Source: Deltaproteobacteria bacterium (lineage in GTDB: Bacteria > Desulfobacterota > Binatia > Bin18). From it: 34,931 nucleotides of DNA. The notes under the pieces were generated by a model. That model searched no databases. It worked only from the letters and a program-made list of their open reading frames with translations, and was not told the origin of the DNA. Made by a program: the position numbers and the translations under genes. The stretch is from contig JABFSC010000778.1 in NCBI GenBank assembly GCA_013140885.1, positions 1-34,931 of the forward strand. The letters are read 5' to 3'. Below are positions 2-19,158 of the stretch, in pieces (the first letter of the stretch is position 1; each line of letters opens with the position of its first letter).

Positions 2-1027
2 CCACGGACAACCCTGAGTTATCAACATGTCACGGAACGCGAGGCCATGTACGGTGCGAGTCAGGAAGTGCCATTCCCAGGGAAACTGCGGCTGCGCGGC
101 GCGGTGGCGACCCGCGACGCCGAGCGCCTCGAACAAGAATATCTCGCGGCACGGCTGCGCATCATCGCGCGTCTGAAGGAAGCCTACTATGACCTCCATT
201 TTGTTCATCACTCAATGGCGGTGGTGGACAAGAACAAACGTATTCTTACGGACTTCGCGCATGCGGCTCAGGCCCGCTACGCGGTCGGGCGTGCCGTGCA
301 GCCGGATGTCTTTCGAGCGCAAACCGAATTATCACGGGCGCTCGCGCGCTTGGCGACGTTAGAACAGCGGCGGGATTCCCTGCGGGCGGAGGTCAATCGC
401 CTCGTGAACCGCCCGCCAGTGGACCCGCTGGGAACACCGCCGGAGATCACCCTGACTGGGCTCCAACATAGTCTGGCCGATCTTCAGACTATGATCGAAC
501 AGGCCGCACCGATGCTGCGCGCACAACGCAAAGGGGTCGAACGCGGAGACCAGGCGATCGCCTTGGCACGGCGGGAATATTTCCCGGATTTTGACATCGG
601 GGTGTTCGGCTTTCGCAACGAGACGATGCGACAGAATGGGTATCAATTCATGATCGGTATCACGGTGCCCTTGTACTACGTGACGAAACAGCAACAGGGA
701 GTACAGGAGGCGCTCGCGACACGTGAGAGCGCCGCGCAGGACCTCCAGGCCGTGCGGCAAGACCTGCTGTTCCGCCTCAAGGATAACTTCGCCCAAGTGC
801 AGCGCGCGGAACGGCTCATCTCGATCCTACGGGACGCTATCATTCCGCAGGCCACGTTCACACTTGAGTCGGCCCAGGCCGGATATGCGGTTGGCACGGT
901 TGATTTCTTGACCTTGTTAAACAGCCTACTCACGCTGCAAGAGAATCAACTCGAACTGCACGGCGAGATAGTCGAACACGAAAAGGCCATCGCTCGGCTT
1001 GAAGAAACCGTGGGGACCGCGCCATGA
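2..1027 (+). CDS. cusC: Outer-membrane efflux factor (TolC/CusC family), 5'-truncated by the window edge
   Basis: The reading frame is open from nt 2, with no stop before the listed ATG at 47. The sequence is helical and Ala/Leu/Gln/Arg-rich, typical of OMF proteins. Its stop overlaps the next start (ATGA at 1024-1027). It lies directly upstream of the adaptor and RND pump genes. Confidence 0.75.
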   Translation, partial: PRTTLSYQHVTEREAMYGASQEVPFPGKLRLRGAVATRDAERLEQEYLAARLRIIARLKEAYYDLHFVHHSMAVVDKNKRILTDFAHAAQARYAVGRAVQPDVFRAQTELSRALARLATLEQRRDSLRAEVNRLVNRPPVDPLGTPPEITLTGLQHSLADLQTMIEQAAPMLRAQRKGVERGDQAIALARREYFPDFDIGVFGFRNETMRQNGYQFMIGITVPLYYVTKQQQGVQEALATRESAAQDLQAVRQDLLFRLKDNFAQVQRAERLISILRDAIIPQATFTLESAQAGYAVGTVDFLTLLNSLLTLQENQLELHGEIVEHEKAIARLEETVGTAP

Positions 1028-2271
1028 GATTTTCCTTGGGATCGTTGCTGATCGGTATCACGATAGGTGGTGGTGTCGCGGTCGCGGTCTTCTGGGCTGC
1101 GCCGTTTACAACCGTCCGGGTAGCCCAGAACTCACACACCGGAGCGGCGTCGCCCTCATCCGCTCCGGTCACACTCGCTCACGCCAGTCATACCGCCTCG
1201 CCTTCGGCGCCGATGGGAGGGGACGACCCAGCGAAAATCCAGGCGACGCTGTCCGAGAATCAGATGGTGGTGAGTCCCGAACGTCTGCAATCCATCGGCG
1301 TGAAATTCGCCTCTGCCGAACGCCGTCTTCTCGAACGGACCATCCGGACGGTGGGGAGAGTCGAGATCGACGAGCGCCAGCTTGCGCGGGTGAATATCAA
1401 GATCGAGGGCTGGATCGACCAATTACACGTGAACTACACCGGCGAGCGGGTGAAGAAGGACCAACTGCTCTTTACCGTCTATAGTCCAGATCTGGTGGCC
1501 ACCCAACAGGAGTATCTCCTGGCCTTAAAGAGCGGACGGCAGCTCGGCGGCAGCGAATTCCCCGAGGTCGCGGAAGGAGCGAAGTCGTTACTTGAAGTGA
1601 GCCGACAGCGGCTCCAACTCTGGGATGTTCCTGAGCACCAAATCCAGGATCTGGAACGGACCGGCACGGTGCTCAAAGCGCTGCATATCCACTCCCCGAT
1701 TACTGGCACGGTCATCAACAAAGTGGCGATTGCCGGTTTGCACGTGAATCCGGGCGACGAGTTGTACACCATCGCGGACCTCTCGCGGATCTGGATTCTC
1801 GCCGACCTCTACGAGTACGAACTGCCACTGATCAAGATGGGACAGCAAGCGACGGTCACCCTCTCCTACGATCCGGGAACCGTCCTCACCGGGCGCGTTG
1901 GGTTCGTCTACCCCACGATTGATCCCCAAACCCGTACGGGAAAGGTCCGCTTCGAGGTCGAGAATCGCGGCGAACAGTTGAAGCCTGGGATGTATGCCAA
2001 CGTTGCACTTCAAGTCTCGTTCGGGACCCGGTTGGTCGTTCCGCGAGAAGCGATCCTGGAATCAGGGGAGCGCCAAGTCCTCTTCATCCACCACGGCGGC
2101 GGGATGCTCGCATGGCGGACGGCACGGCTCGGCCTCCAAGCTGGAGACTGGGTAGAGGTAGTCGAGGGAGTGAAAGAAGGCGAACACGTGGTCACGTCAG
2201 CCAACTTTTTGATCGACTCGGAAAGCCGCTTGAAGGCTGCGATCAGCGGTATGCGCGGCATGCAACATTAG
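1024..2271 (+). CDS. cusB: RND efflux periplasmic adaptor (membrane fusion protein, CusB-like)
   Basis: 415 aa with an N-terminal membrane anchor (LLIGITIGGGVAVAVFWAAP). The content resembles HlyD/MFP barrel-sandwich proteins (e.g. VNPGDELYTIADLSRIWILADLYEYE). It sits between the OMF and RND genes, with an ATGA overlap with the upstream gene. Confidence 0.85.
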   Translation: MRFSLGSLLIGITIGGGVAVAVFWAAPFTTVRVAQNSHTGAASPSSAPVTLAHASHTASPSAPMGGDDPAKIQATLSENQMVVSPERLQSIGVKFASAERRLLERTIRTVGRVEIDERQLARVNIKIEGWIDQLHVNYTGERVKKDQLLFTVYSPDLVATQQEYLLALKSGRQLGGSEFPEVAEGAKSLLEVSRQRLQLWDVPEHQIQDLERTGTVLKALHIHSPITGTVINKVAIAGLHVNPGDELYTIADLSRIWILADLYEYELPLIKMGQQATVTLSYDPGTVLTGRVGFVYPTIDPQTRTGKVRFEVENRGEQLKPGMYANVALQVSFGTRLVVPREAILESGERQVLFIHHGGGMLAWRTARLGLQAGDWVEVVEGVKEGEHVVTSANFLIDSESRLKAAISGMRGMQH

Positions 2272-2279
2272 GAGGGGCT

Positions 2280-5200
2280 ATGGTTGAACGCATCATCGAC
2301 TTTAGTGCCCGCAACCGCTTCATTGTGCTGCTCCTCGTCTTCGGTTCCGCCGCCGCCGGTCTGTGGGCGTTGAAGAACACGCCGATGGACGCCATTCCTG
2401 ACCTCTCGGATACCCAAGTCATCATCTATACCACGTGGATGGGACGTTCACCGGATCTCGTGGAAGATCAAGTGACCTATCCCATTGTGACCACCCTCCT
2501 GTCCGCCCCAAAAGTCACGGCCGTGCGCGGGTTCTCGGACTTCGGTTTCTCCTACGTCTATGTGTTGTTTGAGGACGGCACGGACCTCTATTGGGCACGA
2601 TCCCGCGTGCTGGAGTACATGAACCAGCTCCTGGGCCGTCTGCCAGAAGGAGTCACCCCTCAGCTCGGCCCAGATGCCACGGCTGTTGGCTGGGTCTTTC
2701 AATACGCGCTTGTCGATGAAAGCGGGCAGCAAGACCTGGCGTCCCTGCGGTCCTTCCAAGACTGGTACTTGCGCTACTGGCTGCGGAGTGTCGATGGCGT
2801 CGCCGAAGTGGCCAGCGTCGGTGGCTTCGTGCGCCAGTATCAGGTGAATTTGGATCCCACCAAGGTCCTCGCCTATAAACTGTCAATCTCAGAGATTATT
2901 GAAAAAATACGGATGAACAATAACGACGTGGGGGGCCGTGTCGTGGAGTTCTCCGGCATCGAATACATGATTCGCGGGCGCGGCTATATCAAATCGACCA
3001 CGGATATCGAGCGGATCGCCTTGAGTGTGAACCAGAACGGCACGCCGATTCTGCTGCGCGATGTCGCCACGGTGCGCTTAGGGCCGGATATGCGCCGCGG
3101 TGTGGTCGAACTCAACGGCCAGGGAGAAGTCGTTGGCGGCATTGTGGTCATGCGCTTCGGCGAAGATGTCCCCAAGGTGATTGCACGCGTGAAGGCCAAG
3201 CTGACCGCGCTCGCACCGTCGCTGCCACCAGGGGTTAAAGTGGTGAGCATGTATGATCGTAGCGACCTCATTCATGAATCCATCGCGACCGCGAATGAGA
3301 ATCTGCTCGAGGAACTCCTCGTCGTGAGTGTCTTGGTCGTGGGGTTTCTCTTGCACCTCCGGTCGGCGCTGATCCCGATCATCATGCTGCCGTTGGCGAT
3401 CCTGATTTCTTTCATCCCCGCGTACTTCCTAGGGGTTGGGCTCAACATCATGTCCATTGGCGGCATTATTGTCGCTATTGGCGATATGGTCGATGCCGCG
3501 ATTATCATCGTGGACAACGCGCATAAGCGGCTAGAAGAGTGGGAACAAGGAGGTCGAGTCGGCGACCGTGCCCAGATTCTCATTGACGCGGCCAAAGAAG
3601 TCGGCCCAGCGATTTTCACCTCCGTATTAGTCATTGCCATTTCGTTTACCCCGGTCTTCGCTTTGGAGGCGCAAGAAGGTCGCTTGTTCAAACCGTTGGC
3701 GTTTACCAACAACCTGGCGATTGCCATGAGTGCCGTGCTGGCGATTACCTTGATCCCCGCGTTACTGGTGCCTCTCATGCGCGGGCGCATCATCCCGGAA
3801 CACCGTCATCCGGTGAACCGGTTCTTACAGCAGCTCTATGCGCCGGTCCTCCGGCTCGCGCTGCGCCATCGTGGGGTCGTCGTCCTGCTTGCCGTTGGGC
3901 TGACCATCAGCATCGTTCCCATCTACCAACGGATGGGCTCCGAGTTCATGCCCCCCCTGTATGAGGGGACCATCTTGTACATGCCGACGACGTTGCCAGG
4001 GATTTCCGTGACCGAGGCGGGCATGCTGCTCCAGCAAATGGATCGGAAGCTGAAAGCCTTCCCAGAGGTTGCCCACGTCTTCGGGAAAGCGGGCCGCGCC
4101 GAAACGTCCACGGACTCCGCGCCCTTCAGTATGATGGAGGTCGTCGTTGGCCTCAAATCGAAAGACCAGTGGCGTCCGGGCATGACGTACGAAGCGCTCG
4201 TTGATGACATGGACAAGACGCTTCAATTTCCGGGTGTGACGAACGCCTGGACGATGCCGATCAAGGCGCGGACCGACATGCTCACCACGGGAGTACGAAC
4301 ACCCGTGGGCATCAAGATTTTTGGCCCTGATCTCAAGCAGATTGAAGAGATTGGTCAGCATATAGAAATGACGGTACGAAATGTCACCGGCACACGCAGC
4401 GTCTACGCGGAACGTGTATCGGGAGGATATTTCCTCGACTTCACCATCAACCGCGAGGAAATTGCCCGGTACGGGTTGGCGGTGATGGACGTCGGTCAGA
4501 TCATCGAATCCGCCATTGGAGGAGAAAACATTGCCACGACCATTGAAGGCCGCGAGCGCTATCCCATCAACGTGCGCTATTTGCGGGAACTGCGGGATGA
4601 TCCAGAAAAACTCAACCGGGTCCTGGTCCCGACACCCACGGGCGCGCAGGTGCCATTAGCGCAGTTAACGACGCTGCGATTCGTGTCGGGCCCACCGATG
4701 ATTCGTGACGAGGATGGCATGCTCTCCGGCTATGTGTACGTCGATATGACGGGGCGCGATGTCGGTGGCTATGTCGAGGACCTCAAACGCGCCGTACAGG
4801 ACAAGGTCACGTTACCGCCCGGCTACACCATCACGTGGTCAGGACAGTATGAGTTCATGCAACGGGTGCAGGCCCGTTTATTGATTGTCGTTCCACTGAC
4901 CATCGCCATTATTTTTGTGCTTTTCTATCTTGAGTTTCGCTCCATCTCCGAGACCCTCATGGTGATGCTCGGTCTGCCCCTCTGCCTGGTCGGCGCGATC
5001 TGGTACCTCGCTCTCTTGGAGTACAACATGAGCATTGCCGTGTGGGTGGGCATCCTGGCATTGGCCGGGACAGCCGCGGAGACGAGCGCGGCCATGCTGG
5101 TGTATTTGGACAGCGCCTGCGCACGCAGGAAAGGCGTAGGTCAGTTGCGGTCACTTCAGGATTTGCTGGAGACCGTACACGCTGGAGCGGTCGAACGCAT

Positions 5201-5432
5201 TCGTCCCATGGTGATGGTGAGTGTGGTCGATATTTTGGGACTCGTACCGACGATGTGGGCGACGGGGACGGGAGCGGACGTGATGAAACGCCTCGCGGCG
5301 CCAACGGTTGGTGGTGTGATGTCTGGGCTTGTCCTTACCCTATTCGTCATTCCGGCTTTGTACGCGATGTGGAAATGGCGCTGGGAAATACAGCCCGCAC
5401 TGGTACGGGCAAACGAAGGAATCCAAGCATAA
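2280..5432 (+). CDS. cusA: Heavy-metal-efflux RND inner-membrane pump (CusA-like, Cu(I)/Ag(I))
   Basis: The ORF track starts at 2112, but ATG 2280 is preceded by AGGAGG (2269-2274) and yields the typical RND N-terminus MVERIIDFSARNRFIVLLL. TM4 carries AIGDMVDAAIIIVDNA, which matches the HME-RND A-x5-D-x6-(E/D) proton-relay motif in its CusA-like form. Length is about 1050 aa. Confidence 0.9.
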   Translation: MVERIIDFSARNRFIVLLLVFGSAAAGLWALKNTPMDAIPDLSDTQVIIYTTWMGRSPDLVEDQVTYPIVTTLLSAPKVTAVRGFSDFGFSYVYVLFEDGTDLYWARSRVLEYMNQLLGRLPEGVTPQLGPDATAVGWVFQYALVDESGQQDLASLRSFQDWYLRYWLRSVDGVAEVASVGGFVRQYQVNLDPTKVLAYKLSISEIIEKIRMNNNDVGGRVVEFSGIEYMIRGRGYIKSTTDIERIALSVNQNGTPILLRDVATVRLGPDMRRGVVELNGQGEVVGGIVVMRFGEDVPKVIARVKAKLTALAPSLPPGVKVVSMYDRSDLIHESIATANENLLEELLVVSVLVVGFLLHLRSALIPIIMLPLAILISFIPAYFLGVGLNIMSIGGIIVAIGDMVDAAIIIVDNAHKRLEEWEQGGRVGDRAQILIDAAKEVGPAIFTSVLVIAISFTPVFALEAQEGRLFKPLAFTNNLAIAMSAVLAITLIPALLVPLMRGRIIPEHRHPVNRFLQQLYAPVLRLALRHRGVVVLLAVGLTISIVPIYQRMGSEFMPPLYEGTILYMPTTLPGISVTEAGMLLQQMDRKLKAFPEVAHVFGKAGRAETSTDSAPFSMMEVVVGLKSKDQWRPGMTYEALVDDMDKTLQFPGVTNAWTMPIKARTDMLTTGVRTPVGIKIFGPDLKQIEEIGQHIEMTVRNVTGTRSVYAERVSGGYFLDFTINREEIARYGLAVMDVGQIIESAIGGENIATTIEGRERYPINVRYLRELRDDPEKLNRVLVPTPTGAQVPLAQLTTLRFVSGPPMIRDEDGMLSGYVYVDMTGRDVGGYVEDLKRAVQDKVTLPPGYTITWSGQYEFMQRVQARLLIVVPLTIAIIFVLFYLEFRSISETLMVMLGLPLCLVGAIWYLALLEYNMSIAVWVGILALAGTAAETSAAMLVYLDSACARRKGVGQLRSLQDLLETVHAGAVERIRPMVMVSVVDILGLVPTMWATGTGADVMKRLAAPTVGGVMSGLVLTLFVIPALYAMWKWRWEIQPALVRANEGIQA

Positions 5433-5515: not shown

Positions 5516-6403
5516 ATGAAAAGAACCTCTCTTCTCTCTCTCGTCATTCTTGCGACACCCGTGTTGGTGGCGGTGCTGTCCATCGAAGGCCGATTCGCGC
5601 ACGCCCAGAGCGGCCACACTCAGGACGCAAGCAAGGATGAACGTGACCAGATGCTGGCCGCGCGGATTCAAGAACTCCCGGTCAAGGTCGTTAGACTCAA
5701 GGCGGCTCTGGCTGAAAACCAGTGGGGGCCCGCGACCGGTGTGGCTGGCGTCACCACGATAGGGATGCCGATGGGGGCGGGCGGCCAGCCGTCTGGCATG
5801 GGGATGATGGAAGGTGGTCACATGGGGATGGGGATGCAAGGTCAGGGAGGTGGCATGTCCTCAATGACAGCCGGCAGCGGCGCCTCATCTGGTTCCGGGG
5901 TAATGGGCGGTATGGACATGATGGGAAAGGTCAGCGGCTCAGGGAGGATGCCCATGTCGTCAGCGCTACCCGGCTTTCCTGGGGCCTCGCATCTGTATCA
6001 TGTTGGCGCCACCGGTTTCTTCCTCGATCACCCTGAGCACATCACGCTCACGATGGAGCAGCAAACAGCGCTGAGTCGTATCAAGGAAAAGGCGCTCTTG
6101 GAGCAGGCAACGACGCAGCGAAAGATCGAGGGGACAGAACAGGAGTTATGGACGTTGACCGGCGCGGAGCAGCCACTTGTCGACAAAGTTGATGCGAAAG
6201 TGAGGGAAATCGAAAAGCTCCGCGCCGATCAGCGGCTCGCATTCATCCGTGCGGTTGGGGAGGCCGCCCAGGCGCTGACGGATGAGCAACGCAAGGCACT
6301 CTTAGGGCAAATCCCCCCCGCGACTCCCAGTACGCCGCAGGCTGCGACTCCCGGCATGCCGTCAGGGGCACCCAACGCCGGTACTGGGATGAGTGATATG
6401 TGA
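5516..6403 (+). CDS. Secreted Met/Gly-rich protein with a C-terminal LTxxQ (CpxP/ZraP/Metal_resist-like) helical domain
   Basis: ATG 5516 follows GGAAAGGAG and gives the signal peptide MKRTSLLSLVILATPVLVAVLSIEGRFAHAQ. A Met/Gly-rich stretch follows (MGMPMGAGGQPSGMGMMEGGHMGMGMQGQGGGMSSM). The C-terminal part has two LTxxQ motifs (LTMEQQTAL, LTDEQRKAL). It is a paralog of 10637-11314. The upstream part of the 5042 ORF overlaps cusA and was rejected. Confidence 0.8.
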   Translation: MKRTSLLSLVILATPVLVAVLSIEGRFAHAQSGHTQDASKDERDQMLAARIQELPVKVVRLKAALAENQWGPATGVAGVTTIGMPMGAGGQPSGMGMMEGGHMGMGMQGQGGGMSSMTAGSGASSGSGVMGGMDMMGKVSGSGRMPMSSALPGFPGASHLYHVGATGFFLDHPEHITLTMEQQTALSRIKEKALLEQATTQRKIEGTEQELWTLTGAEQPLVDKVDAKVREIEKLRADQRLAFIRAVGEAAQALTDEQRKALLGQIPPATPSTPQAATPGMPSGAPNAGTGMSDM

Positions 6404-6417
6404 GAAGTACGGGAGAT

Positions 6418-8328
6418 ATGCGCATGCGTAACAGGTATCATCGCCGTAGCGTGTTCTCACGCCTTCGCGTGGCCGTCGTGTGCCTGGGATTAGCGGTTGC
6501 GACCCCGGGCTATAGCCAAGTGTCGCCCAGTGAGCACGAAGCGCATCATCCCGGTCAAGGACAGACCGCGCCAGTTGCCTCACCGCCCGCGAGTCCGGGA
6601 GCGGCGGGCAATATGGGACAAGGGATGGGGGAGATGATGAAGGGGATGGGTGAGATGATGAAAGGGATGGGGATGTCCCCGCGCAAAGAGCTCTATCCCT
6701 CACTGATGGAGTTACCGGAGCTGCCGCCAGAACGGCGTGTCGAGATGGAGACGTTGGCCCATGAGCGCATGCTGACAGGGACCGCACTGCTCTCTTCGGG
6801 CCTCGACCAACTCGCGCAGGCGACGGCGCAAAAGGACTATTCGGCCATGCAGAAAGCAACCGCGCAGGTGCGGTTCGGTCTCGCTCAGTTCGAGAGTGGA
6901 TTGGCGGCTCACCGCGCGTTGGCCGACGGCAAGGGGGCCCGCGACGTGGCCCTCCAATGGTTCCAACGTACGATGAGCCTCGCGCCGGCGGCCGACGATG
7001 AGTCTCCGCGTGAGATCTTTGGCTTATCTTGGTTTCACTACATGACGATGGTTCTCCTCACGGCATTCGCGATCACGATGATTTGGATGTACTTCCACAA
7101 GATGCGGCGAGCCACGCAGCTCCTTCAAAGCTTGACGGGGGGCATCCCACTCGCGCCGACAACCGCGACTGTTGCCGCCGCGCTGGGACAAACCTCTCCG
7201 CCCGTCAGTGGGCTCGCTTCTCCCCTCGTTCCCGTGGCCGATGGGGCGTTCGTCCCTGCGCAGCCGGGTAAATGGTTAGGCAAACTGCGTGTGGGCCGGA
7301 TCTTCCAGGAGACGCCAGACGTGAAGACGTTTCGGCTCATGAACCCCCTTGGCGGCGTGCTGCCGTTCGCATACCTCCCTGGGCAGTTTCTTACCGTGAC
7401 CGTGACCCCGGACGGCAAGCTGGTGAAGCGCGGCTACACCATCGCCTCCTCGCCGACGCAGCATGACTACGTGGAGATTACCGTCAAGCACGAAGAGGGG
7501 GGAGTGGTGTCGGGCTTCCTCCACGCCCGTGTTCAGGAAGGGGATCTGTTGGAGTTTTCCGGTCCCTCAGGCTCCTTCATTTTCACCGGGCGGGAGTGTC
7601 GGTGTATCCTGCTCATCGGCGGCGGCGTGGGCATCACGCCGCTGATGAGCGTCCTTCGCTACCTGACCGACCGCGCCTGGCCGGGGGACATCTTCCTCAT
7701 GTACGGTTGTAAGAGCCCCCGCGACATCATCTTCCGCGAAGAACTGGATTACCTCCAGCGGCGCCATCCGAACCTGCGCGTGGTGATCGTCGTGTCGCAT
7801 GCCGAAGGGACGGATTGGAAGGGGCCGACAGGCTTCATTACCAAGGAACTGATCAGCCAGTCCGTGCCGGATATCGCGTCGCGCTATGTGCACATCTGTG
7901 GTCCCGTGCCCATGATGGAAGCGGCGAAGAAGATCCTGGCCGAACTCGGCGTACCAAAGGAGCGCGTCAAGACTGAGGCGTTCGGTTTGGCTATGGGGAA
8001 GCCGGAGCCGACGATGCCGCTCGCCGAACTTCCGCTTGGGAAGGAAGAGAAGGCCGCCCAGATAGCCCTCCCCGTAGTTACGTTCTCTCTGTCGAATAAG
8101 TCGGCCCCGTTTGCGCCTGACAAGGTCATCCTCGATGTGGCGGACGAGATCGGCGTCGAGATCGACAACTCCTGTCGCGTGGGTACCTGCGGGACTTGCC
8201 GGGTGAAGCTGCTGGCCGGCCAGGTGACCATGGCCGTCGAGAATGGCCTGGAGCCCGGCGACAAGGAGCAGGGCATCATCCTAGCCTGCCAGGCCAAGTC
8301 TACGGGCAACGTGACGGTGGAGGCGTGA
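6418..8328 (+). CDS. Membrane-anchored FNR-like oxidoreductase (FAD/NAD(P)H domains plus C-terminal plant-type 2Fe-2S) with an N-terminal periplasmic Met/His-rich domain
   Basis: The N-terminus looks like a signal peptide (RLRVAVVCLGLAVATPGYSQ). It is followed by HEAHHPGQGQ and GMGEMMKGMGEMMKGMGM, then a helical region and a single TM helix (WFHYMTMVLLTAFAITMIWMYF). FNR motifs are RGYTIAS (RxY[ST]), GGVVSGFL, LLIGGGVGITPLMS and ICGPVPMM. The ferredoxin motif is C-x4-C-x2-C-x29-C (CRVGTCGTCRV...LACQ). The start is uncertain: GTG 6400, ATG 6418 or ATG 6424. Confidence 0.85.
   Translation: MRMRNRYHRRSVFSRLRVAVVCLGLAVATPGYSQVSPSEHEAHHPGQGQTAPVASPPASPGAAGNMGQGMGEMMKGMGEMMKGMGMSPRKELYPSLMELPELPPERRVEMETLAHERMLTGTALLSSGLDQLAQATAQKDYSAMQKATAQVRFGLAQFESGLAAHRALADGKGARDVALQWFQRTMSLAPAADDESPREIFGLSWFHYMTMVLLTAFAITMIWMYFHKMRRATQLLQSLTGGIPLAPTTATVAAALGQTSPPVSGLASPLVPVADGAFVPAQPGKWLGKLRVGRIFQETPDVKTFRLMNPLGGVLPFAYLPGQFLTVTVTPDGKLVKRGYTIASSPTQHDYVEITVKHEEGGVVSGFLHARVQEGDLLEFSGPSGSFIFTGRECRCILLIGGGVGITPLMSVLRYLTDRAWPGDIFLMYGCKSPRDIIFREELDYLQRRHPNLRVVIVVSHAEGTDWKGPTGFITKELISQSVPDIASRYVHICGPVPMMEAAKKILAELGVPKERVKTEAFGLAMGKPEPTMPLAELPLGKEEKAAQIALPVVTFSLSNKSAPFAPDKVILDVADEIGVEIDNSCRVGTCGTCRVKLLAGQVTMAVENGLEPGDKEQGIILACQAKSTGNVTVEA
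6622..6672 (+). repeat. In-frame 21-bp tandem repeat (2.4 units) encoding GMGEMMK
   Basis: gggatgggggagatgatgaag (6622-6642), gggatgggtgagatgatgaaa (6643-6663) and gggatgggg (6664-6672), read directly from the sequence. Confidence 0.9.
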
Positions 8329-8329
8329 G

Positions 8330-9088
8330 ATGAAAGAGCACGAGCCTATGGTCGTCGGAGGGTTGGTGGCCCTGCTGGTGGTACTGTGGCTAGGCTTCCG
8401 GTTCCACGTCTCCCCCAGCTTTGCTGGCAGTTTCTGGGGTGGCGTGTTCGGGGTATCGGGCGCGCTGCTCATGCTCTTGTCCGCGGTGTACCTGGTGGTC
8501 AAGCGAGTTCCGCCCCTTAAATTATGGGTCACCGGCCGAGTCTCTATGCAGACCCTGCTGACCTGGCACATGTATACCGGCATCGTGGGCGCCCTCCTGG
8601 GCTTGCTGCACACGGGTCATAAGTTCAACAGCCCCCTCGGAATCGCCCTGACGGCGGTGTCGCTCCTCGTCGTCCTGAGCGGGTTCGTCGGGCGCCATTT
8701 GATGAAGCAGATTTCCTTGGAGATCCGCGAAAAGAAGGAAATGCTGACCAGTTTAGAGTTGGCCTACCGACAGACGGTGGGCGAGGTGGCCGCGCATCCC
8801 GATCTGACCACCATCCTGTGGCCCCTGGCGGGATTCTGGTCACGCCTGGTGGTGGGGCTCCTCGTGACGACTCCGACGGAATCGGGCTCGCTGCCCGCCC
8901 CCGTTCGTGCGCTCCGGCTGGCTGATGCCATCGCTGACCTGGAGTACGCCATTAGGACTCACGAGACCTTCAAACGATGGTTCGCCGCTTGGCTCAAGGT
9001 TCACATCCTCACCGGCTTCGTTCTGTATAGCTTGCTGGGCCTGCACATCTGGGCGGGCATTTACTTTGGGCTGAGGTGGTTCGCATGA
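8330..9088 (+). CDS. Polytopic membrane protein, putative di-heme b-type cytochrome (ferric-reductase/MsrQ-like logic)
   Basis: GGAGG (8319-8323) lies 6 nt before ATG 8330, which is 1 nt after the upstream stop. The protein has about 6 hydrophobic helices. Two helices carry His pairs exactly 14 residues apart within a shared pattern: WHMYTGIVGALLGLLH and VHILTGFVLYSLLGLH. Confidence 0.6.
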   Translation: MKEHEPMVVGGLVALLVVLWLGFRFHVSPSFAGSFWGGVFGVSGALLMLLSAVYLVVKRVPPLKLWVTGRVSMQTLLTWHMYTGIVGALLGLLHTGHKFNSPLGIALTAVSLLVVLSGFVGRHLMKQISLEIREKKEMLTSLELAYRQTVGEVAAHPDLTTILWPLAGFWSRLVVGLLVTTPTESGSLPAPVRALRLADAIADLEYAIRTHETFKRWFAAWLKVHILTGFVLYSLLGLHIWAGIYFGLRWFA

Positions 9089-9927
9089 AACTATGGCCAT
9101 TCGTAATCGCGGCGGTGGCTCTCGTCGTGGCGTTGTTTGGTGGGTTTTATTTCCTGCGAGTCCACCCTGGAGGCCTGCGTTCGGGGGTATTGGACAAGAC
9201 GGCCTGGCAACGCATGGCCGTTCCCGGCGCGTTGTCCAACGCACACGCATTTTTGGAACACAACTGCGCCGCCTGTCATACTCCGGTGACGGGTGCCGAC
9301 GACATCAAGTGCATCGGCTGCCACGCGAATGACGAAGCTCTGCTTCAGCGTCAGCCCACCGTGTTTCACGCGACGATCGGATCCTGTGCCTCCTGCCACG
9401 GCGAACACCAGGGCGTCGATACACATGTGGGGGAGATGGATCACGCAAAGTTAGCGAAAATCGCCCTTACTTCATTGACAACCACTAGCCCCCAGAGTGA
9501 GCAAAAGCGAGGGAGCACGGACCTTGTGACATGGCTCCGTCCGCACCAAGACATGGTAGCGGCCACGAGCCACCCACAGCTGACTCCGCTGGAGGCGACG
9601 TTGGACTGCCGAACTTGTCACGGTACTAAGGACCGTCACGTCGGACTTTTCGGGGGAGACTGTGCCGCGTGTCATGGGACCGCGGCGTGGACGATCGCTG
9701 CATTCCGCCACCCCTCGCCGCGCTCACTTGACTGCGCCCAGTGTCATCAGGCTCCGCCCAGCCATTACATGGAGCACTTCAACATGGTTTCGAAAAGAGT
9801 CGCTGGGCAAGACAACGATGCGAGTAGTCAGTGTTGCGGCCCAGTGCAAGTCAACCAGTGCTACCGCTGTCATCAGACGACGTCGTGGAACGACATCAAG
9901 GGGGTCGGATGGTACAAGCACCACTGA
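9085..9927 (+). CDS. Membrane-anchored heptaheme c-type cytochrome
   Basis: ATG 9085 overlaps the upstream stop (ATGA) and follows GAGGTGG. The N-terminal anchor is MKLWPFVIAAVALVVALFGGFYFL. There are seven CxxCH motifs: CAACH, CIGCH, CASCH, CRTCH, CAACH, CAQCH, CYRCH. Confidence 0.9.
   Translation: MKLWPFVIAAVALVVALFGGFYFLRVHPGGLRSGVLDKTAWQRMAVPGALSNAHAFLEHNCAACHTPVTGADDIKCIGCHANDEALLQRQPTVFHATIGSCASCHGEHQGVDTHVGEMDHAKLAKIALTSLTTTSPQSEQKRGSTDLVTWLRPHQDMVAATSHPQLTPLEATLDCRTCHGTKDRHVGLFGGDCAACHGTAAWTIAAFRHPSPRSLDCAQCHQAPPSHYMEHFNMVSKRVAGQDNDASSQCCGPVQVNQCYRCHQTTSWNDIKGVGWYKHH
9700..9927 (+). repeat. Copy 1 of a 228-bp dispersed direct repeat (3' end of the cytochrome c gene)
   Basis: Aligned by eye to 18931-19158 with 9 mismatches in 228 bp. 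Similarity ends at both borders. Confidence 0.9.
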
Positions 9928-10083: not shown

Positions 10084-10156
10084 GCTGCTCCAGTTCCCAC
10101 GTTGTTCGGGATAATGCATTCGCATTACCCGTAGATAGAGAATGGAGGAGAACGCC

Positions 10157-10471
10157 ATGATGAAATACAGAATCGTTACACTCGCAATTGTTGCGCTCTT
10201 GTCCGTGTCTTTCCCTGCCTCATCCGTTCTGGCCGCCGAGATGGTTGGTGTCATGATGAAGGATGGCAAGATGATGATGATGGACGGCAAGGCGACGGGA
10301 CCGATGGACCACGAGATGACGATGCCCGACGGCCACAAGATCATGCCTGACGGCACGATGAAAATGAACGACGGCAAAGAGATGCGCATGCAGGAAGGCC
10401 AGATGATGACGATGGACGGGAAGATGCTGGAGGGTGGCAAGGACATGAAAATGGAAGGGATGGACAAGTAG
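10157..10471 (+). CDS. Small secreted, extremely Met-rich repeat protein (M-x-DGK type repeats), probable periplasmic Cu(I)/Ag(I) binder
   Basis: GGAGG (10144-10148) lies 8 nt before ATG 10157. The signal peptide is MMKYRIVTLAIVALLSVSFPASSVLAAE. The mature part reads MMKDGKMMMMDGK...MPDGHKIMPDGTMKMNDGKEMRMQEGQMMTMDGKMLEGGKDMKMEGMDK. Confidence 0.8.
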   Translation: MMKYRIVTLAIVALLSVSFPASSVLAAEMVGVMMKDGKMMMMDGKATGPMDHEMTMPDGHKIMPDGTMKMNDGKEMRMQEGQMMTMDGKMLEGGKDMKMEGMDK

Positions 10472-10636: not shown

Positions 10637-11314
10637 ATGAAACGTTACTTAGTGTTGTCAATCGTCGCCCTATTCGCGGCATCTCTCAATGGCGTCACAT
10701 GGGCCGATATGGATGAAATGGGCGCCATGCAAAGCAGCGGCGGCGCCATGCCCGCCGGAGCACCGGCAGCGGGAATGAGCGGGGGTGGTAGCATGGGCAT
10801 GGACAAGATGGAAATGGTCGGGATGATGGGCATGGGCGCGATGAGCAGGGGCGCGATGAGCAGCGGCGCAGCGGGCACTATACCGCAGTCCGCACTGCCC
10901 GGCTTCCCCGGCGCGTCGCACCTTTACCACATTGGCAGTACGGGCTTCTTCCTCGATCACCCGCAGCACATCGGGCTCACGATCGAGCAGCAGGTGGCGC
11001 TCAACAAAGCCAAAAAACAAGCGTTACTCGCGAAGAGCAGGGCCGACCGCGCGATCGGGCAAGCCGAGCAGGAGCTGTGGATACTGACCGCCGCCGATCA
11101 GCCGGACGCCGCGAAAATCCAGGACAAGATTGGCGAAATCGGAAAGCTGAAGAGCGATCAACGGATCGCGTTCATCCGCGCCGTAGGCGACGCGAGCAAC
11201 CTCCTCACCGACGACCAGCGCAAAAGCCTCACTGGTTTCGCGCCACCAGCGTCCGCGAATTCCATGGTAGCTCCCGATGCCGCGATGCCCGCTGGCGGCA
11301 TGAAAGACATGTGA
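10637..11314 (+). CDS. Secreted Met/Gly-rich LTxxQ (CpxP/ZraP-like) protein, paralog of 5516-6403
   Basis: AAGGAG (10623-10628) lies 8 nt before the ATG, and a signal peptide is present. It shares the block ALPGFPGASHLYH[VI]G[AS]TGFFLDHP[EQ]HI.LT[MI]EQQ.AL ... DQR[LI]AFIRAVG[ED]A...LTD[ED]QRK[AS]L and a C-terminal M[SK]DM with the 5516 gene. Confidence 0.8.
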   Translation: MKRYLVLSIVALFAASLNGVTWADMDEMGAMQSSGGAMPAGAPAAGMSGGGSMGMDKMEMVGMMGMGAMSRGAMSSGAAGTIPQSALPGFPGASHLYHIGSTGFFLDHPQHIGLTIEQQVALNKAKKQALLAKSRADRAIGQAEQELWILTAADQPDAAKIQDKIGEIGKLKSDQRIAFIRAVGDASNLLTDDQRKSLTGFAPPASANSMVAPDAAMPAGGMKDM

Positions 11315-12621: not shown

Positions 12622-13974
12622 ATGAAAACAGCATCTGAAATCCCGACCAAATCCGCGAAGCGAGAACCGGGGATGCAACTCCTCTTGCTCCTCTTAATCC
12701 TTCTCCCGCTCATCATTCTTTTCCTCCTGCCAGGCGGGGGAATGCTGCACGGCGGCATGTTTTTCTGGATGGGGCTGCTGCTCTGCTTCTGGCTGCTCTC
12801 GATGCTCTTAGGAACGAGAGCGGACAGCGCGCCTGTGGCGACCACGCGTCTCTTGAGCGCAGAAGAGCACCCTGTGGCGGTGAAAGAGGTGATGGACGTT
12901 CGCTTCGCTGAGGAAGAAAATGGCGTTCGGATTTTCCGCGGTCGGCTGCGCGAGCCAGCAGCCGCTGTCTATGCCAAACTCAAGCGCGCTCTCGGTGCCG
13001 AATCCGCGCCGATGGTACAGGCCGACGAGCAGTTCGGCGCTTCCATCTTGCTCGTGCCGGAGCCAGCCGAGAAGGCTGTTGCGGAGCAGCACGCCAGGCT
13101 GTGGGTGAACGGGTTGTTGTTCGCACTCACCGTCGGTACGACTACCTGGGCGGGCGCGGCGCATCAAGGCGTCAATTTGCTCCGCGAGCCGGGACGATTC
13201 ACCGTCGGTCTGCCCTACGCGCTCGGACTACTAGCGATCCTCGGCGTTCACGAATTAGGTCACTACTTCATGGCCCGGCATCATCGCATCCGCGTCACGC
13301 TGCCTTACTTTATTCCGATGCCGTTCGCACTGGGTACGTTTGGCGCATTCATCGAAATGCGCTCGCCCGCCGAGAACCGGCGCGCGCTCTTTGATGTCGC
13401 CGTCGCCGGGCCGCTGGCGGGCTTGGTCATCGCAATCCCGGCGCTTGTGATTGGGCTGCGCTCGTCAGTCATCGTTGCGGCGGCGGCTGAGCCAGCGGCA
13501 GGTATGGCGCACGGCGGAGCCTCTGTCGGCTCGTCGGTGCTACTCGCCTTTCTCGCGAAACTCTCGCTCGGTCCCGCGCTGCTCGAAAGCCATGTGCTGC
13601 AACTCAGCCCGCTCGCCTTCGCCGGCTGGCTCGGCCTCATGATCACCGCCCTCAATCTGCTCCCCATTGGTCAGCTCGACGGTGGCCACATCGCCCGCGC
13701 CATGTTCGGACGCCGCGCGGGTGAAACGATCGGCAGTGTTGCTATGTGGACGCTGCTGCTGCTCGGGCTGTTCGTTTGGCCGGGGCTGCTGACGTGGGCG
13801 ATCATCGTATTTTTTATTGCTGGTCGCGGCGCGCCGCCGTTGGACGATTTGACGCCGCTCACTCCGTCGCGCCGATGGCTGGGCTATGCGGCTTTCGCCA
13901 TGCTCGCCCTCATTCTTGCCCCGCTGCCGCACACGCTATGGGGTGCGGCGGGTATCCACTGCCCTTACATGTAA
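12622..13974 (+). CDS. Site-2 protease family zinc metalloprotease (peptidase M50)
   Basis: HExxH lies in a TM segment (VHELGHYFMARHH) and the second M50 signature is NLLPIGQLDGGHI. The protein is polytopic and hydrophobic. Confidence 0.85.
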   Translation: MKTASEIPTKSAKREPGMQLLLLLLILLPLIILFLLPGGGMLHGGMFFWMGLLLCFWLLSMLLGTRADSAPVATTRLLSAEEHPVAVKEVMDVRFAEEENGVRIFRGRLREPAAAVYAKLKRALGAESAPMVQADEQFGASILLVPEPAEKAVAEQHARLWVNGLLFALTVGTTTWAGAAHQGVNLLREPGRFTVGLPYALGLLAILGVHELGHYFMARHHRIRVTLPYFIPMPFALGTFGAFIEMRSPAENRRALFDVAVAGPLAGLVIAIPALVIGLRSSVIVAAAAEPAAGMAHGGASVGSSVLLAFLAKLSLGPALLESHVLQLSPLAFAGWLGLMITALNLLPIGQLDGGHIARAMFGRRAGETIGSVAMWTLLLLGLFVWPGLLTWAIIVFFIAGRGAPPLDDLTPLTPSRRWLGYAAFAMLALILAPLPHTLWGAAGIHCPYM

Positions 13975-14195: not shown

Positions 14196-14468
14196 ACACG
14201 CCCGCTCGAAGCATCGCGGAGCGCGGTTGCTCGAAATTGATGGAAGAACCACGGCAAAATTGATGGGAGACAGCAACAACCAAGAAAGAAACCTGAATCC
14301 ACGGCCAAGCATTGAATTTGCCGGTTTCGGACTCAGTTTATGTGGCTTAGCGGCAATCTCCATTTTCACCCATTGGGTGCTGTCTCGGTATTGCGCTAGG
14401 GACCGCTGTCATTGGGAGAAACTGCATTTTTGATTCTTTACCCGTGGATTCAGGAAAGAAACATAACC

Positions 14469-16934
14469 ATGAAAGAATCGCAATCCGTGACCATAGATCC
14501 CATCTGCGGAATGACCGTGGACGAAGCAACCGCTCTCCACGCGGAACGCGAGGGAAAGACGTTCTACTTTTGCAGCGACCACTGTCGGCTCAAGTTTCGG
14601 TCAGCGCCGGCGAGCGTGACGCATGCGGAAGTGCCTCCCGGCGGCTCTCAGTCTCCTCTCGCGCACGAGCACGGTGACCGTTCGACGGCGTGGTCCTCGA
14701 CGCAATATTTTTGCCCGATGTGCCCTGGCGTGGAATCCGACCAGCCCGGTGACTGTTCGCAATGCGGGATGGCGTTGGAGCGCAATCCCGCACGGGTCGG
14801 GCTGGTGTCAGGAAAAACGATTTACACCTGTCCGATGCACCCCGAAGTGCGGCAGGACCATCCCGGCGATTGCCCCAAGTGCGGCATGACGCTGGTGCGG
14901 AAGACCCCGACGGCGAGCCCGGATCAAGTGGAGGACGCTGAGCTGCATGACATGACGACGCGCTTCTGGATCGGTGCGGCGCTGACGTTGCCGGTGTTTT
15001 TCCTGGCGATGGCGCACGTGATCCCGGCGCTGGCCAGGCAGTCCTGGGCGGATAGTCACACCTCGCGCTGGATACAACTTGCGCTCACCACGCCCGTGGT
15101 CTGGTGGGCGGGCGGGCCGTTCTTCCGCCGGGGCTGGCGCTCGGTCGTGACGCGTCACTTGAACATGTTTACGCTGATCGCCCTCGGCGTGGGCGCGGCG
15201 TTCGTCTTTAGCGCGGTGGCCATGCTCGCGCCCGACCTGTTCCCGCATACCATGCGACACGAGGGCAAGGTGGCCATCTACTTTGAAGCCGCCGCGGTGA
15301 TCGTTGTTCTCGTGTTGCTGGGGCAGGTGCTCGAGCTCCGTGCCCGCAGCCGTACCGGCAGCGCCATCAAAGCGTTGCTCAACCTCGCCCCGCCCATGGC
15401 GCGGCGGGTCACACCGGGGGGCGATCATGAAGTCTCGCTCGACCAAGTGAAAGTCGGCGACCAGTTACGGGTTGTTCCAGGTGACAAGGTGCCTGTCGAT
15501 GGCGTGGTCGTGGAAGGCCATTCCAATGTGGAGGAATCCATGATCACCGGCGAACCGCTTCCGGTGGAAAAGAGCGTCGGCGACAAAGTGACGGGCGGCA
15601 CCGTCAATGGAACCGGCAGTTTCGTCATGCGCGCCGAGCGGGTCGGGAGCGACACGTTGCTCGGGCAGATCGTCAACATGGTTGCCGAAGCCCAGCGCAG
15701 CCGTGCACCCATTCAAGGTCTCGTGGACAAGGTCGCGAGCATCTTCGTGCCGGTGGTGCTGGCGGTGGCAGTGCTTACTTTCGTTGTCTGGCTATGGCTG
15801 GGGCCAGAGCCAGAGCTCGCGCACGCCATCGTCAACGCCGTTGCGGTCCTCATCATTGCCTGCCCGTGCGCCCTCGGCCTGGCCACGCCCATGTCCATCA
15901 TGGTCGGCGTCGGACGCGGTGCGCAGGAAGGCGTGCTCGTGAAAAACGCCGAAGCGCTCGAACGGTTGGAGAAAGTCACCACGCTCGTCGTGGACAAGAC
16001 GGGCACCCTGACGGAGGGCAAACCTAAGCTCGTGGATGTCCTGCCCACCGGCGGTTTCGAGACGAAGGAATTTCTGCGGCTCGCCGCCTCACTGGAGCAG
16101 AACAGCGAACACCCACTCGCCGCCGCGATTGTGCAGGGCGCGAAGGAGCAAGGCATCGCCATCGAGACGGTAAAAGACTTTCGTTCGGTGACGGCGGGCG
16201 GTGTTCTCGGCACCGTCGCTGGTCGCGCGGTGATGATCGGCAAGCCGGCCTTCCTGCGAGACAAAGGCATTGCCAGTCTGGAGCCGCTCGAAGCCTCGGC
16301 CGTGCAACTCCAGGAGGAAGGCAAGACCGCGATGTATGTCGCCGTGGATGGCAAGCCAGCGGGAATCCTCGCCGTCGCTGACCCGATCAAATCGACCACC
16401 CCCGAAGCCATCCGCGAACTCCACGCGCTCGGTTTGAAACTCGTCATGCTCACCGGCGACAACCGCCGCACCGCCGCCGCAGTAGCGAAGACACTTGGCC
16501 TCGATGCGGTGGAAGCGGACATCGAACCCGCCGGCAAAGTCAGCCATGTGAAGAAGCTGCGGGCGGAAGGCAACCACGTCGCGATGGCTGGCGACGGCAT
16601 CAACGACGCCCCCGCCCTGAGCGAAGCCGAAGTCGGCATTGCGATGGGCACGGGCACCGACGTGGCCATGCAGAGTGCTGGAGTCACCCTCGTGAAAGGC
16701 GACCTCCGCGGTATTGCCAAAGCGATTCGCCTCAGTCGCGCCACCATGCGGAATATCCGGCAGAATCTGTTCTTCGCCTTTGTCTACAATGCGCTGGGAA
16801 TTCCGGTGGCGGCGGGCGTGTTGTACCCGTTCTTCGATTTGCTGCTCAGCCCGATCATTGCCGGTGCCGCGATGAGCCTGAGTTCAGTGTCCGTCATCAG
16901 CAACGCCTTGCGGCTGCGAAAGGTGAGGCTTTGA
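14469..16934 (+). CDS. copA: Cu(I)/Ag(I)-translocating P1B-1-type ATPase with an N-terminal TRASH/YHS-like domain plus two CPM[CH]P...C..CGM metal-binding modules
   Basis: Catalytic motifs are [15 protein letters not shown] and the TM CPC ([12 protein letters not shown]). The P1B-1 signatures are N-x6-YN-x4-P ([14 protein letters not shown]) and MxxSS (MSLSSVS). The N-terminus has CGMTV...YFCSDHC, then [24 protein letters not shown] and [24 protein letters not shown]. The ATG 14469 start was chosen over the 14412 ORF start. Confidence 0.92.
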
Positions 16935-18876: not shown

Positions 18877-19158
18877 ATGTCTGATCTGCTGATGCGCGGT
18901 AGTGGTCTTCAACTCTTGGCGGTGGCGGCAGCATTCCGCCACCCCTCGCCGCGCTCGCTCGACTGCGCCCAGTGTCATCAGGCTCCGCCCAGCCATTACA
19001 TGGAGCACTTCAACATGGTTTCGAAAAGAGTCGCTGGGCAAGACAACGATGCGAATAGTCAGTGTTGTGGCCCAGTGCAAGTCAACCAGTGCTACCGCTG
19101 TCATCAGACGACATCGTGGAACGATATCAAGGGGGTCGGATGGTACAAGCACCATTAG
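18877..19158 (+). CDS. Di-heme c-type cytochrome fragment or paralog (duplicate of the C-terminal 75 codons of 9085-9927 with a novel N-terminus)
   Basis: GAGGAG (18862-18867) precedes ATG 18877. It retains CAQCH and CYRCH. The new N-terminus MSDLLMRGSGLQLLAVAAA is only weakly signal-like. It may be a remnant rather than a functional gene. Confidence 0.5.
   Translation: MSDLLMRGSGLQLLAVAAAFRHPSPRSLDCAQCHQAPPSHYMEHFNMVSKRVAGQDNDANSQCCGPVQVNQCYRCHQTTSWNDIKGVGWYKHH
18931..19158 (+). repeat. Copy 2 of the 228-bp dispersed direct repeat
   Basis: About 96% identical to 9700-9927. The differences are mostly at synonymous codon positions. Confidence 0.9.

Follow-up and report, generated by a model that had tools for sequence, protein, structure and literature searches.

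Introduction

How might electrons pass from a cytoplasmic reductase to a periplasmic multiheme cytochrome c when the gene between the two encodes a small membrane protein outside any curated family? This question is raised by a 34,931-nucleotide stretch of DNA from Deltaproteobacteria bacterium (Binatia; Bin18), contig JABFSC010000778.1 of assembly GCA_013140885.1, which was analyzed as a whole and is referred to here as the window. The gene in question, an open reading frame (ORF) at 8330-9088, encodes a putative di-heme cytochrome b. We conclude that its product is probably a b-type cytochrome with five transmembrane (TM) helices and two hemes, which forms the middle of a three-gene conduit running from NAD(P)H to a heptaheme cytochrome c and on to a periplasmic acceptor.

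Bacteria need routes by which cytoplasmic electrons can reach periplasmic chemistry. The known small di-heme conduits, namely the MsrQ/ferric reductase domain (FRD), PepSY-like, and DUF4405 proteins, have been linked to repair of methionine sulfoxide, to iron reduction, and to flavinylated acceptors. The family described here would add a conduit of another build, which has five helices and a long hairpin, is connected to an FNR/[2Fe-2S] reductase at one end and a heptaheme cytochrome c at the other, and travels with copper-resistance genes across phyla.

Four conserved histidines on two transmembrane helices

Two TM helices of the protein each carry a pair of histidines 14 positions apart, as an earlier note on this DNA, made from the sequence letters without database searches, had observed. 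H80-x13-H94 lies on TM3 within TWHMYTGIVGALLGLLH (residues 78-94) and H225-x13-H239 on TM5 within KVHILTGFVLYSLLGLH (residues 223-239), and both pairs fall in helices predicted by AlphaFold2 (73-94 and 190-251). When the protein sequence was shuffled, two or more H-x13-H pairs arose in 4% of the shuffles, which is not negligible for a single sequence, so the significance of the pattern comes from its conservation across the family. In an alignment of 88 homologs sharing 28-81% identity, just five columns are invariant, namely H80, H94, G118, H225, and H239, and each of the four histidines is kept at 95-99% in 83 full-length representatives of clusters at 50% identity. The earlier note had named conservation of these histidines among homologs as a check on heme binding, and on this point its expectation was borne out.

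The residues between the histidines agree less well with what had been proposed. The note described one pattern common to both helices, H-x2-TG-x-V-x3-LLGL-x-H. The strings it cited and the histidine spacing are correct, but the exact pattern fits neither helix: TM3 reads V-x2-LLGL-x-H and TM5 reads V-x3-LLGL-H, which puts the LLGL blocks one position out of register. Nor are TG and LLGL features of the family, in which T83 is mostly alanine, G229 is mostly serine, and LLGL is not conserved. A duplication of TM3 and TM5 within the gene, also suggested by the note, is not established and was not adopted here; a profile comparison of the two helices gave P = 3e-4 over 24 columns, driven by the two histidines and general hydrophobicity, and convergence on heme binding would account for it equally well.

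Other features of the two helices are consistent with bound heme. Between the TM3 histidines, the face of the helix that bears them is lined by small residues, G84, G87, and A/G91 (positions i+4, i+7, and i+11). In cytochromes b a stripe of this kind lets the porphyrin pack against the helix. The conservation moment of TM5, calculated with its histidines excluded, is directed to within 1 degree of one of those two histidines and 39 degrees of the other (p < 0.001), and TM3 is conserved on all sides, as expected of a buried helix. The conservation analysis gave no sign that the histidines point to lipid. TM5 also carries the motif W221-x3-H225 and has conserved G247, R249, and W250 at its periplasmic end.

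A secondary pair of histidines, H26 in periplasmic loop 1 and H97, lies on the periplasmic side. These are less conserved than the core four, H26 being kept in 61 of 84 homologs (73%) and H97 in 71 of 84 (85%). Their motifs, H-x-S-P-R-F-A-G-S for H26 and H94-T-G-H97-K-F for H97, are conserved in the subfamily found in copper islands, and most of the remote relatives examined have phenylalanine or serine in place of H97. NOX enzymes have an extra histidine near the outer heme (His119) to which H26 and H97 are analogous, and the two could form a metal site or a contact for cytochrome c near the outer heme.

Predicted topology and the cytoplasmic hairpin

The AlphaFold2 model of the protein, built from the 88-sequence alignment, has a mean pLDDT (predicted local distance difference test) of 94.2 and a pTM (predicted template modeling score) of 0.84, with helices at residues 2-24, 35-59, 61-68, 73-94, 102-155, 157-166, 169-178, and 190-251. 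Hydropathy and the model together give five TM helices. The model of a natural homolog with a short insert (pLDDT 93.8) likewise has five TM helices and the hairpin. Lysine and arginine are concentrated at the N-terminus, in the loop at 58-72 (K58, R59, K64, and R70), and at the base of each hairpin arm, and are few in loops 26-34 and 96-101 and at the C-terminus. Read by the positive-inside rule, this charge distribution predicts a cytoplasmic location for the N-terminus and the hairpin and a periplasmic one for the C-terminus. With this topology TM3 and TM5 would both run from inside to outside, and therefore H80 and H225 would lie on the cytoplasmic side and H94 and H239 on the periplasmic side, the last of these 12 residues from the C-terminus.

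The long insert between the two helices, for which the earlier note had recognized no family, is real. It spans residues 125-216, matches no Pfam family, and in the model extends TM4 beyond the membrane before turning back into TM5. The hairpin is found in every family member, with a length of 61-115 residues. Its arms are conserved (K135, L139, T140, L142, E143, Y146, and R147 in arm A; A202, D203, E205, Y206, and A207 in arm B) and its tip is variable. In NOX enzymes the corresponding cytoplasmic loop between TM4 and TM5 contacts the dehydrogenase domain. The conserved arms are likely candidates for a surface on which the [2Fe-2S] domain of the reductase docks.

Relation to known heme-b families

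At least 1539 proteins, among 8000 candidates scored from a collection clustered at 90%, belong to the family, which has 533 representatives at 50% clustering and occurs in the genomes of more than 200 species. Nearly all are annotated as "hypothetical protein"; a member from Tautonia sociabilis was automatically named "Iron reductase" in UniProt. One protein, P0122 (545 residues), has a domain of this type fused to a C-terminal soluble domain that we take to be DUF547-like. A second candidate fusion, of FNR-Fer2 with the cytochrome b (P0182, 465 residues), has an arginine-rich linker suggestive of frameshifted read-through and was not used as evidence.

Weak Pfam matches recur across the family and point in one direction. 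Among the 88 aligned members, sub-threshold matches at an expectation value (E) of 1 or less were obtained to DUF4405 in 43 (best E 1e-5), to Ferric_reduct in 31 (best E 1.8e-5), and to Ni_hydr_CYTB in 24 (best E 2.4e-5), the next most frequent being DUF1294 in 11. All three leading families are membrane heme-b families, and presumably share the Pfam clan "2-haem cytochrome". The cytochrome b of bc1 and b6f complexes (Cytochrom_B_N) did not appear in the top 25 families, ranked by how many of the 88 members matched them at this cut-off. DUF4405 matches cover TM5, Ferric_reduct matches cover TM2-TM3, and those of Ni_hydr_CYTB (PF01292, prokaryotic cytochrome b561) cover the whole length in places. 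The Ferric_reduct score of the protein itself is 11.7 bits (E 0.29), or 17.4 bits (E 0.015) in a scan of the organism's own genome, where this gene was the only match; the best score in the family is 25.2 bits, under the threshold of 28. DUF4405 scores were 13.7-23.2 bits in the members examined and 24.9 in one remote relative (threshold 26.7), and the best seen for Ni_hydr_CYTB were 21.5-22.1 (threshold 30.1). Together with the invariant histidines, these recurrent matches argue computationally for the heme binding that the note had put forward conditionally.

The FRD (PF01794), which includes MsrQ/YedZ, the short and long bacterial FRE/NOX-like proteins, and the eukaryotic NOX/FRE/STEAP proteins, offers the closest comparison of layout. 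It is defined by four histidines on TM3 and TM5, with 13 residues between them on TM3 and 12-13 on TM5, and in NOX2 His101 and His209 hold the inner heme and His115 and His222 the outer heme (PMC3591440). The likeness in spacing to helix 3 of NOX-type proteins that the earlier note had drawn is exact, for H-x13-H is the spacing of His101 and His115 in NOX2 (PMC3591440) and is found in bacterial FRD proteins. Like the FRD, the protein studied here has two histidines on each of TM3 and TM5, two helices before TM3, an inside-to-outside course for both histidine helices, W-x3-H on TM5, and basic residues in the cytoplasmic loop between TM2 and TM3. In both, an FNR-type NAD(P)H module would supply the electrons and an extracytoplasmic acceptor would receive them. 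Unlike the FRD, the family has the helical hairpin in the TM4-TM5 loop, and its dehydrogenase is a separate polypeptide that has its own TM helix, a Met-rich domain in the periplasm, and an additional [2Fe-2S] domain. The proposed acceptor is different too: a heptaheme cytochrome c takes the place of the O2, metal chelate, MsrP, or flavinylated protein that FRD proteins serve.

Profile alignments were made against an FRD alignment composed of PF01794 proteins from related genomes and their homologs. With the hairpin removed, hhalign set TM1-TM5 of the family on TM1-TM5 of the FRD with the four histidines and the W-x3-H motif in register, although the match is weak. The local alignment of the trimmed profile scored 30 (P 8e-4, probability 24%) against 15.6 for a reversed control, and in the global alignment the score was 19.6, whereas none of 30 column shuffles exceeded 9.8. 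No significant match came from sequence and profile searches of the PDB, in which the top hit of relevance was the NOX5 TM domain (5o0t_A, E 0.34), aligned over TM3 alone. In Foldseek searches the long hairpin dominated the matches; the top ones were generic long-helix proteins (ABC exporters, ClyA/AhlC-type toxins, and BAR domains), and a NOX5 chain (8u86_A) stood at rank 33 (E 1.5, 129 columns, root-mean-square deviation 9 Å). Mean-field direct coupling analysis of 293 sequences (effective number about 177) was dominated by gap and near-neighbor artifacts and gave no usable contacts between TM3 and TM5.

DUF4405 (PF14358) is likewise a small helical membrane protein with four central histidines as its most conserved residues, and is likewise proposed to carry electrons across the membrane. 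DUF4405 proteins and FezC have been shown experimentally to purify with heme b, and their four central histidines are laid out as in MsrQ-like and PepSY-like proteins (Huang et al., mSystems 2024, PMC11334425). The contexts differ: ApbE flavinylation or ferrosomes for DUF4405, and an FNR/[2Fe-2S] reductase, a multiheme cytochrome c, and copper islands for the family described here. The flavinylation-associated MsrQ-like and PepSY-like systems (Meheust et al., 10.1101/2021.01.07.425746) follow the same logic, in which a cytosolic NAD(P)H module feeds a di-heme membrane protein and this in turn an extracytosolic redox protein, and are often tied to the reduction of metal, namely iron (10.1101/2021.01.07.425746). 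Their acceptors are FMN-binding proteins made by ApbE, whereas the proposed acceptor here is a c-type heptaheme protein in a copper-resistance context, and we saw no apbE in the window.

Several results weigh against a place among these proteins. Neither the protein nor any of the 88 members reaches a Pfam or NCBIfam cut-off, and an NCBIfam scan of the protein gave no match. The hhalign probabilities against the FRD are low (9-24%, P 5e-4 to 1.6e-3), and no PDB structure was matched by Foldseek at E 0.001 or less with either the model of the protein or that of the short-insert homolog (best E 0.48 and 0.21). The protein has five TM helices and both the FRD and DUF4405 have six, and a [2Fe-2S] domain and a direct transfer from b heme to c heme are foreign to the characterized FRD systems. 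On balance the computational evidence supports the family as a differently built member of the MsrQ/FRD/DUF4405 class of transmembrane cytochromes b, outside any curated family.

The reductase and cytochrome c partners

In the window, the gene stands directly between those of a reductase and a cytochrome c. From N- to C-terminus, the reductase has a signal or anchor sequence and a periplasmic domain rich in Met and His, then a single TM helix, and finally FAD-binding, NAD-binding, and plant-type [2Fe-2S] domains in the cytoplasm. A spacer of one nucleotide separates its stop codon from the ATG of the membrane protein, which has GGAGG just upstream, and the stop codon of the membrane protein in turn overlaps the ATG of the cytochrome c gene (ATGA, 9085-9088). 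With this spacer and overlap, the three genes are translationally coupled. The cytochrome c has an N-terminal TM anchor and seven CxxCH motifs and weakly matches Cytochrom_c3_2, Cytochrome_C7, and NrfH (E 5e-4).

The arrangement is widely kept. In a sample of 80 species genomes with a close homolog of the membrane protein, 77 have the reductase gene directly upstream on the same strand, mostly within 25 bp, and 78 have a multiheme cytochrome c gene downstream, also on the same strand; most of the exceptions are loci that end at a contig edge. The genomes belong mostly to Planctomycetota, along with Nitrospirales, Nitrospinaceae, Verrucomicrobiota, Acidobacteriota, Hydrogenedentota, Omnitrophota, and a few Proteobacteria. 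Our literature search found no description of the three-gene set in Planctomycetes or in copper contexts. The synteny, the coupling of the genes, and the consistent predicted topology all support the suggestion in the earlier note that this protein is the membrane-spanning link between the reductase and the cytochrome c.

More distant proteins occupy a similar position. Remote relatives of 183-370 residues match the family profile with E 1e-15 to 1e-28 when rescored, and keep H-x13-H on both equivalent helices as well as a long helical insert. The gene for one lies between those of a protein with cyclic-nucleotide (cNMP)-binding, FHA, and 4Fe-4S domains and a multiheme cytochrome c; another is followed by a cytochrome c with more than 12 hemes; and a third is preceded by a cNMP-binding 4Fe-4S protein, the two ORFs overlapping. 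That these membrane proteins repeatedly stand between a redox partner in the cytoplasm and a cytochrome c in the periplasm makes a transmembrane electron carrier the simplest reading, and the remote relatives may represent a second such conduit, possibly regulated by cyclic nucleotides.

Proposed electron path

If the protein carries two hemes, the inner heme b near the cytoplasmic face would be ligated by H80 of TM3 and H225 of TM5, and the outer heme b near the periplasmic face by H94 and H239. TM3 and TM5 would run parallel, and with histidines 14 residues (about 21 Å) apart the hemes would be stacked across the bilayer as in the FRD, MsrQ, and DUF4405. Electrons would pass from NAD(P)H to the FAD and [2Fe-2S] centers of the membrane-tethered reductase, whose [2Fe-2S] domain would dock on the TM4-TM5 hairpin, and then to the inner and outer hemes b. 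From the outer heme they would continue to the seven c-hemes of the anchored cytochrome and finally to a periplasmic acceptor.

A heme-b protein in this position might instead be coupled to the quinone pool, as NarI, FdnI, CybB, and in part MsrQ are, and not serve as a direct wire from [2Fe-2S] cluster to c heme. It could then oxidize quinol and reduce the cytochrome c, or take electrons from the reductase and reduce quinone. Ni_hydr_CYTB is among the recurrent weak matches and extends in places over the whole protein, the partner cytochrome c has some resemblance to the quinol dehydrogenase NrfH (E 5e-4), and a ubiquinone cofactor has been reported for MsrQ (PMC12525009). Yet a unit that oxidizes quinol needs no dedicated NAD(P)H reductase, and one adjoins the gene in 77 of the 80 genomes, separated by a single nucleotide in the window; the remote relatives are likewise paired with cytoplasmic Fe-S proteins. 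No quinone-site motif was identified, in an analysis that included no search aimed at such motifs. We regard a quinone-coupled role as unlikely.

The copper island and the proposed periplasmic acceptor

The acceptor of the proposed conduit from NAD(P)H through the putative di-heme cytochrome b to the cytochrome c is possibly periplasmic Cu(II), a proposal drawn from the gene neighborhood. The unit adjoins genes for CusCBA, Met-rich Cu(I) binders, and CopA-type ATPases, which makes Cu(II) the likeliest acceptor; the Cu(I) produced would be handled by the Cus system and the Met-rich proteins. Elsewhere, a Metal_resist/LTXXQ gene lies within 6 kb of 46 of the 80 related loci, the T. sociabilis locus has the same neighbors as the window (a P1B-type ATPase and an M50 protease), and individual loci have a multicopper oxidase with CopB, P1B-type ATPases, or an M50 protease. 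Counting against copper, CusA is encoded within 6 kb in 3 of the 80 loci and a P-type ATPase in 17.

The island around the three genes looks horizontally acquired. A true ortholog of the membrane protein is found in 1 of 60 relatives of the window genome and in none of 3 genomes of the same genus, and the closest homologs (77-91% identity) are labeled Gemmataceae or metagenomic. This patchy distribution among relatives points to horizontal transfer along with metal islands.

A more specific proposal, which we put forward tentatively and consider somewhat doubtful, is that the three proteins are a dedicated NAD(P)H-driven cupric reductase that converts periplasmic Cu(II) to Cu(I) for CusCBA and the Met-rich binders. 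The Met/His-rich domain of the reductase and H26 and H97 of the cytochrome b might then present copper or gate its access. In a 2020 review of bacterial copper homeostasis, the cupric reductases named are CcoG and the NDH-2/quinol activity, with no heme-based periplasmic enzyme among them; CcoG uses Fe-S clusters, and NDH-2 acts unspecifically via quinols (PMC7558416). A unit that reduced periplasmic copper would fill a gap in the known bacterial cupric reductases (PMC7558416). If the proposal is true, the trio would be the first heme-based transmembrane copper reductase described in bacteria, and it would explain how Cu(I)-specific efflux copes with Cu(II) in oxic habitats. With Cu(II) as acceptor it would be a bacterial functional analog of Fre1, STEAP, and Dcytb, the eukaryotic heme-dependent cupric and ferric reductases, with the difference that Fre and STEAP proteins reduce the metal directly at the outer heme and the trio would use the heptaheme cytochrome c.

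The same copper island could suggest that the conserved TM and periplasmic histidines bind copper in place of heme, making the protein a copper channel, carrier, or sensor, and the additional periplasm-side histidines H26 and H97 conserved in the subfamily would suit such a role. The histidines themselves make this very improbable, for pairs 14 residues apart on two parallel helices are the classical layout for two hemes (PMC3591440), and the conserved TM residues do not include methionine, cysteine, or aspartate, which are typical of Cu(I)/Cu(II) transport sites. In addition, the recurrent weak Pfam matches are all to cytochromes b and none to metal transporters, and relatives outside copper islands keep the four histidines and are paired with Fe-S proteins and cytochromes c.

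Least probable of all is a role for the protein as a non-redox scaffold or assembly factor, in which it would hold the reductase and the cytochrome c together and its histidines would be of structural importance: the long conserved hairpin does resemble a protein-protein interaction element, but four invariant histidines at matched membrane depths among varying TM residues are hard to explain structurally, and, given the established distance limits of electron tunneling, the [2Fe-2S] cluster and the c-hemes would be too far apart for electron transfer if no redox cofactor lay in the membrane.

Features of the locus and its variants

The features of the window that bear on the conduit and its copper context are collected in Table 1, along with the remote relatives.

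Table 1. Coordinates and supporting evidence for the cytochrome b gene, its partners, the neighboring genes, and the remote relatives (positions in the window)
Feature	Position	Strand	Evidence or remark
Putative di-heme cytochrome b gene	8330..9088	+	ORF of 252 aa, 5 TM
Periplasm-side histidines H26 (periplasmic loop 1) and H97	8405-8407 (H26), 8618-8620 (H97)	+	Secondary histidine pair
TM3 (residues 73-95)	8546..8614; H80 at 8567-8569, H94 at 8609-8611	+	Ferric_reduct sub-threshold matches over TM2-TM3
Cytoplasmic helical hairpin (residues 125-216)	8702..8977	+	AlphaFold2 secondary structure
TM5 (residues 217-251)	8978..9082; H225 at 9002-9004, H239 at 9044-9046	+	DUF4405 sub-threshold matches
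Upstream reductase	6400..8328 (likely ATG 6418)	+	Pfam FAD_binding_6, NAD_binding_1, Fer2
Downstream cytochrome c, N-terminal TM anchor, seven CxxCH	9085..9927 (alternative GTG start 9076)	+	Motif count, weak Pfam/NCBIfam matches
CusC-like OEP	2-1027	+	Pfam OEP
CusB-like membrane-fusion protein	1024-2271	+	Pfam HlyD_D23/HlyD_D4
CusA-like RND pump	2112-5432	+	Pfam ACR_tran
Secreted Met/Gly-rich protein, Metal_resist/LTXXQ domain	5516..6403	+	Pfam
Met-rich DUF6799 protein	10142-10471		Pfam
Metal_resist paralog, Met-rich	10637-11314		Pfam
M50 protease	12622-13974		Pfam
Heavy-metal P1B-type (CopA-type) ATPase with HMBD and YHS domains	14412..16934	+	Pfam
Remote relatives L091 (G116:C17), L090 (G109:C3), and L095/L096 (G067, G068)			L095/L096 from the same taxonomic family as the window genome

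About a quarter of the related loci have an extra gene between the cytochrome b and cytochrome c genes, encoding a secreted coiled-coil protein of 150-250 residues (for example L084 6788-7537, L045 6783-7250, and L073 6775-7269). In one Stieleria copy, a transposase-like ORF is found in that position instead (L068 6810-8366).

The C-terminus of the cytochrome c is highly conserved (...QCHQTTSWNDI-x-G-x-GWYKHH), and its terminal His-His pair could serve as a metal-binding tail. The 3' end of the cytochrome c gene (9700-9927) recurs 9 kb downstream, at 18931-19158, as a 228-bp copy with 9 mismatches. In the copy the reading frame is intact, the final two CxxCH motifs and GWYKHH are retained, one amino acid differs (S to N), and a possible new short N-terminus begins MSDLLMRGSG.

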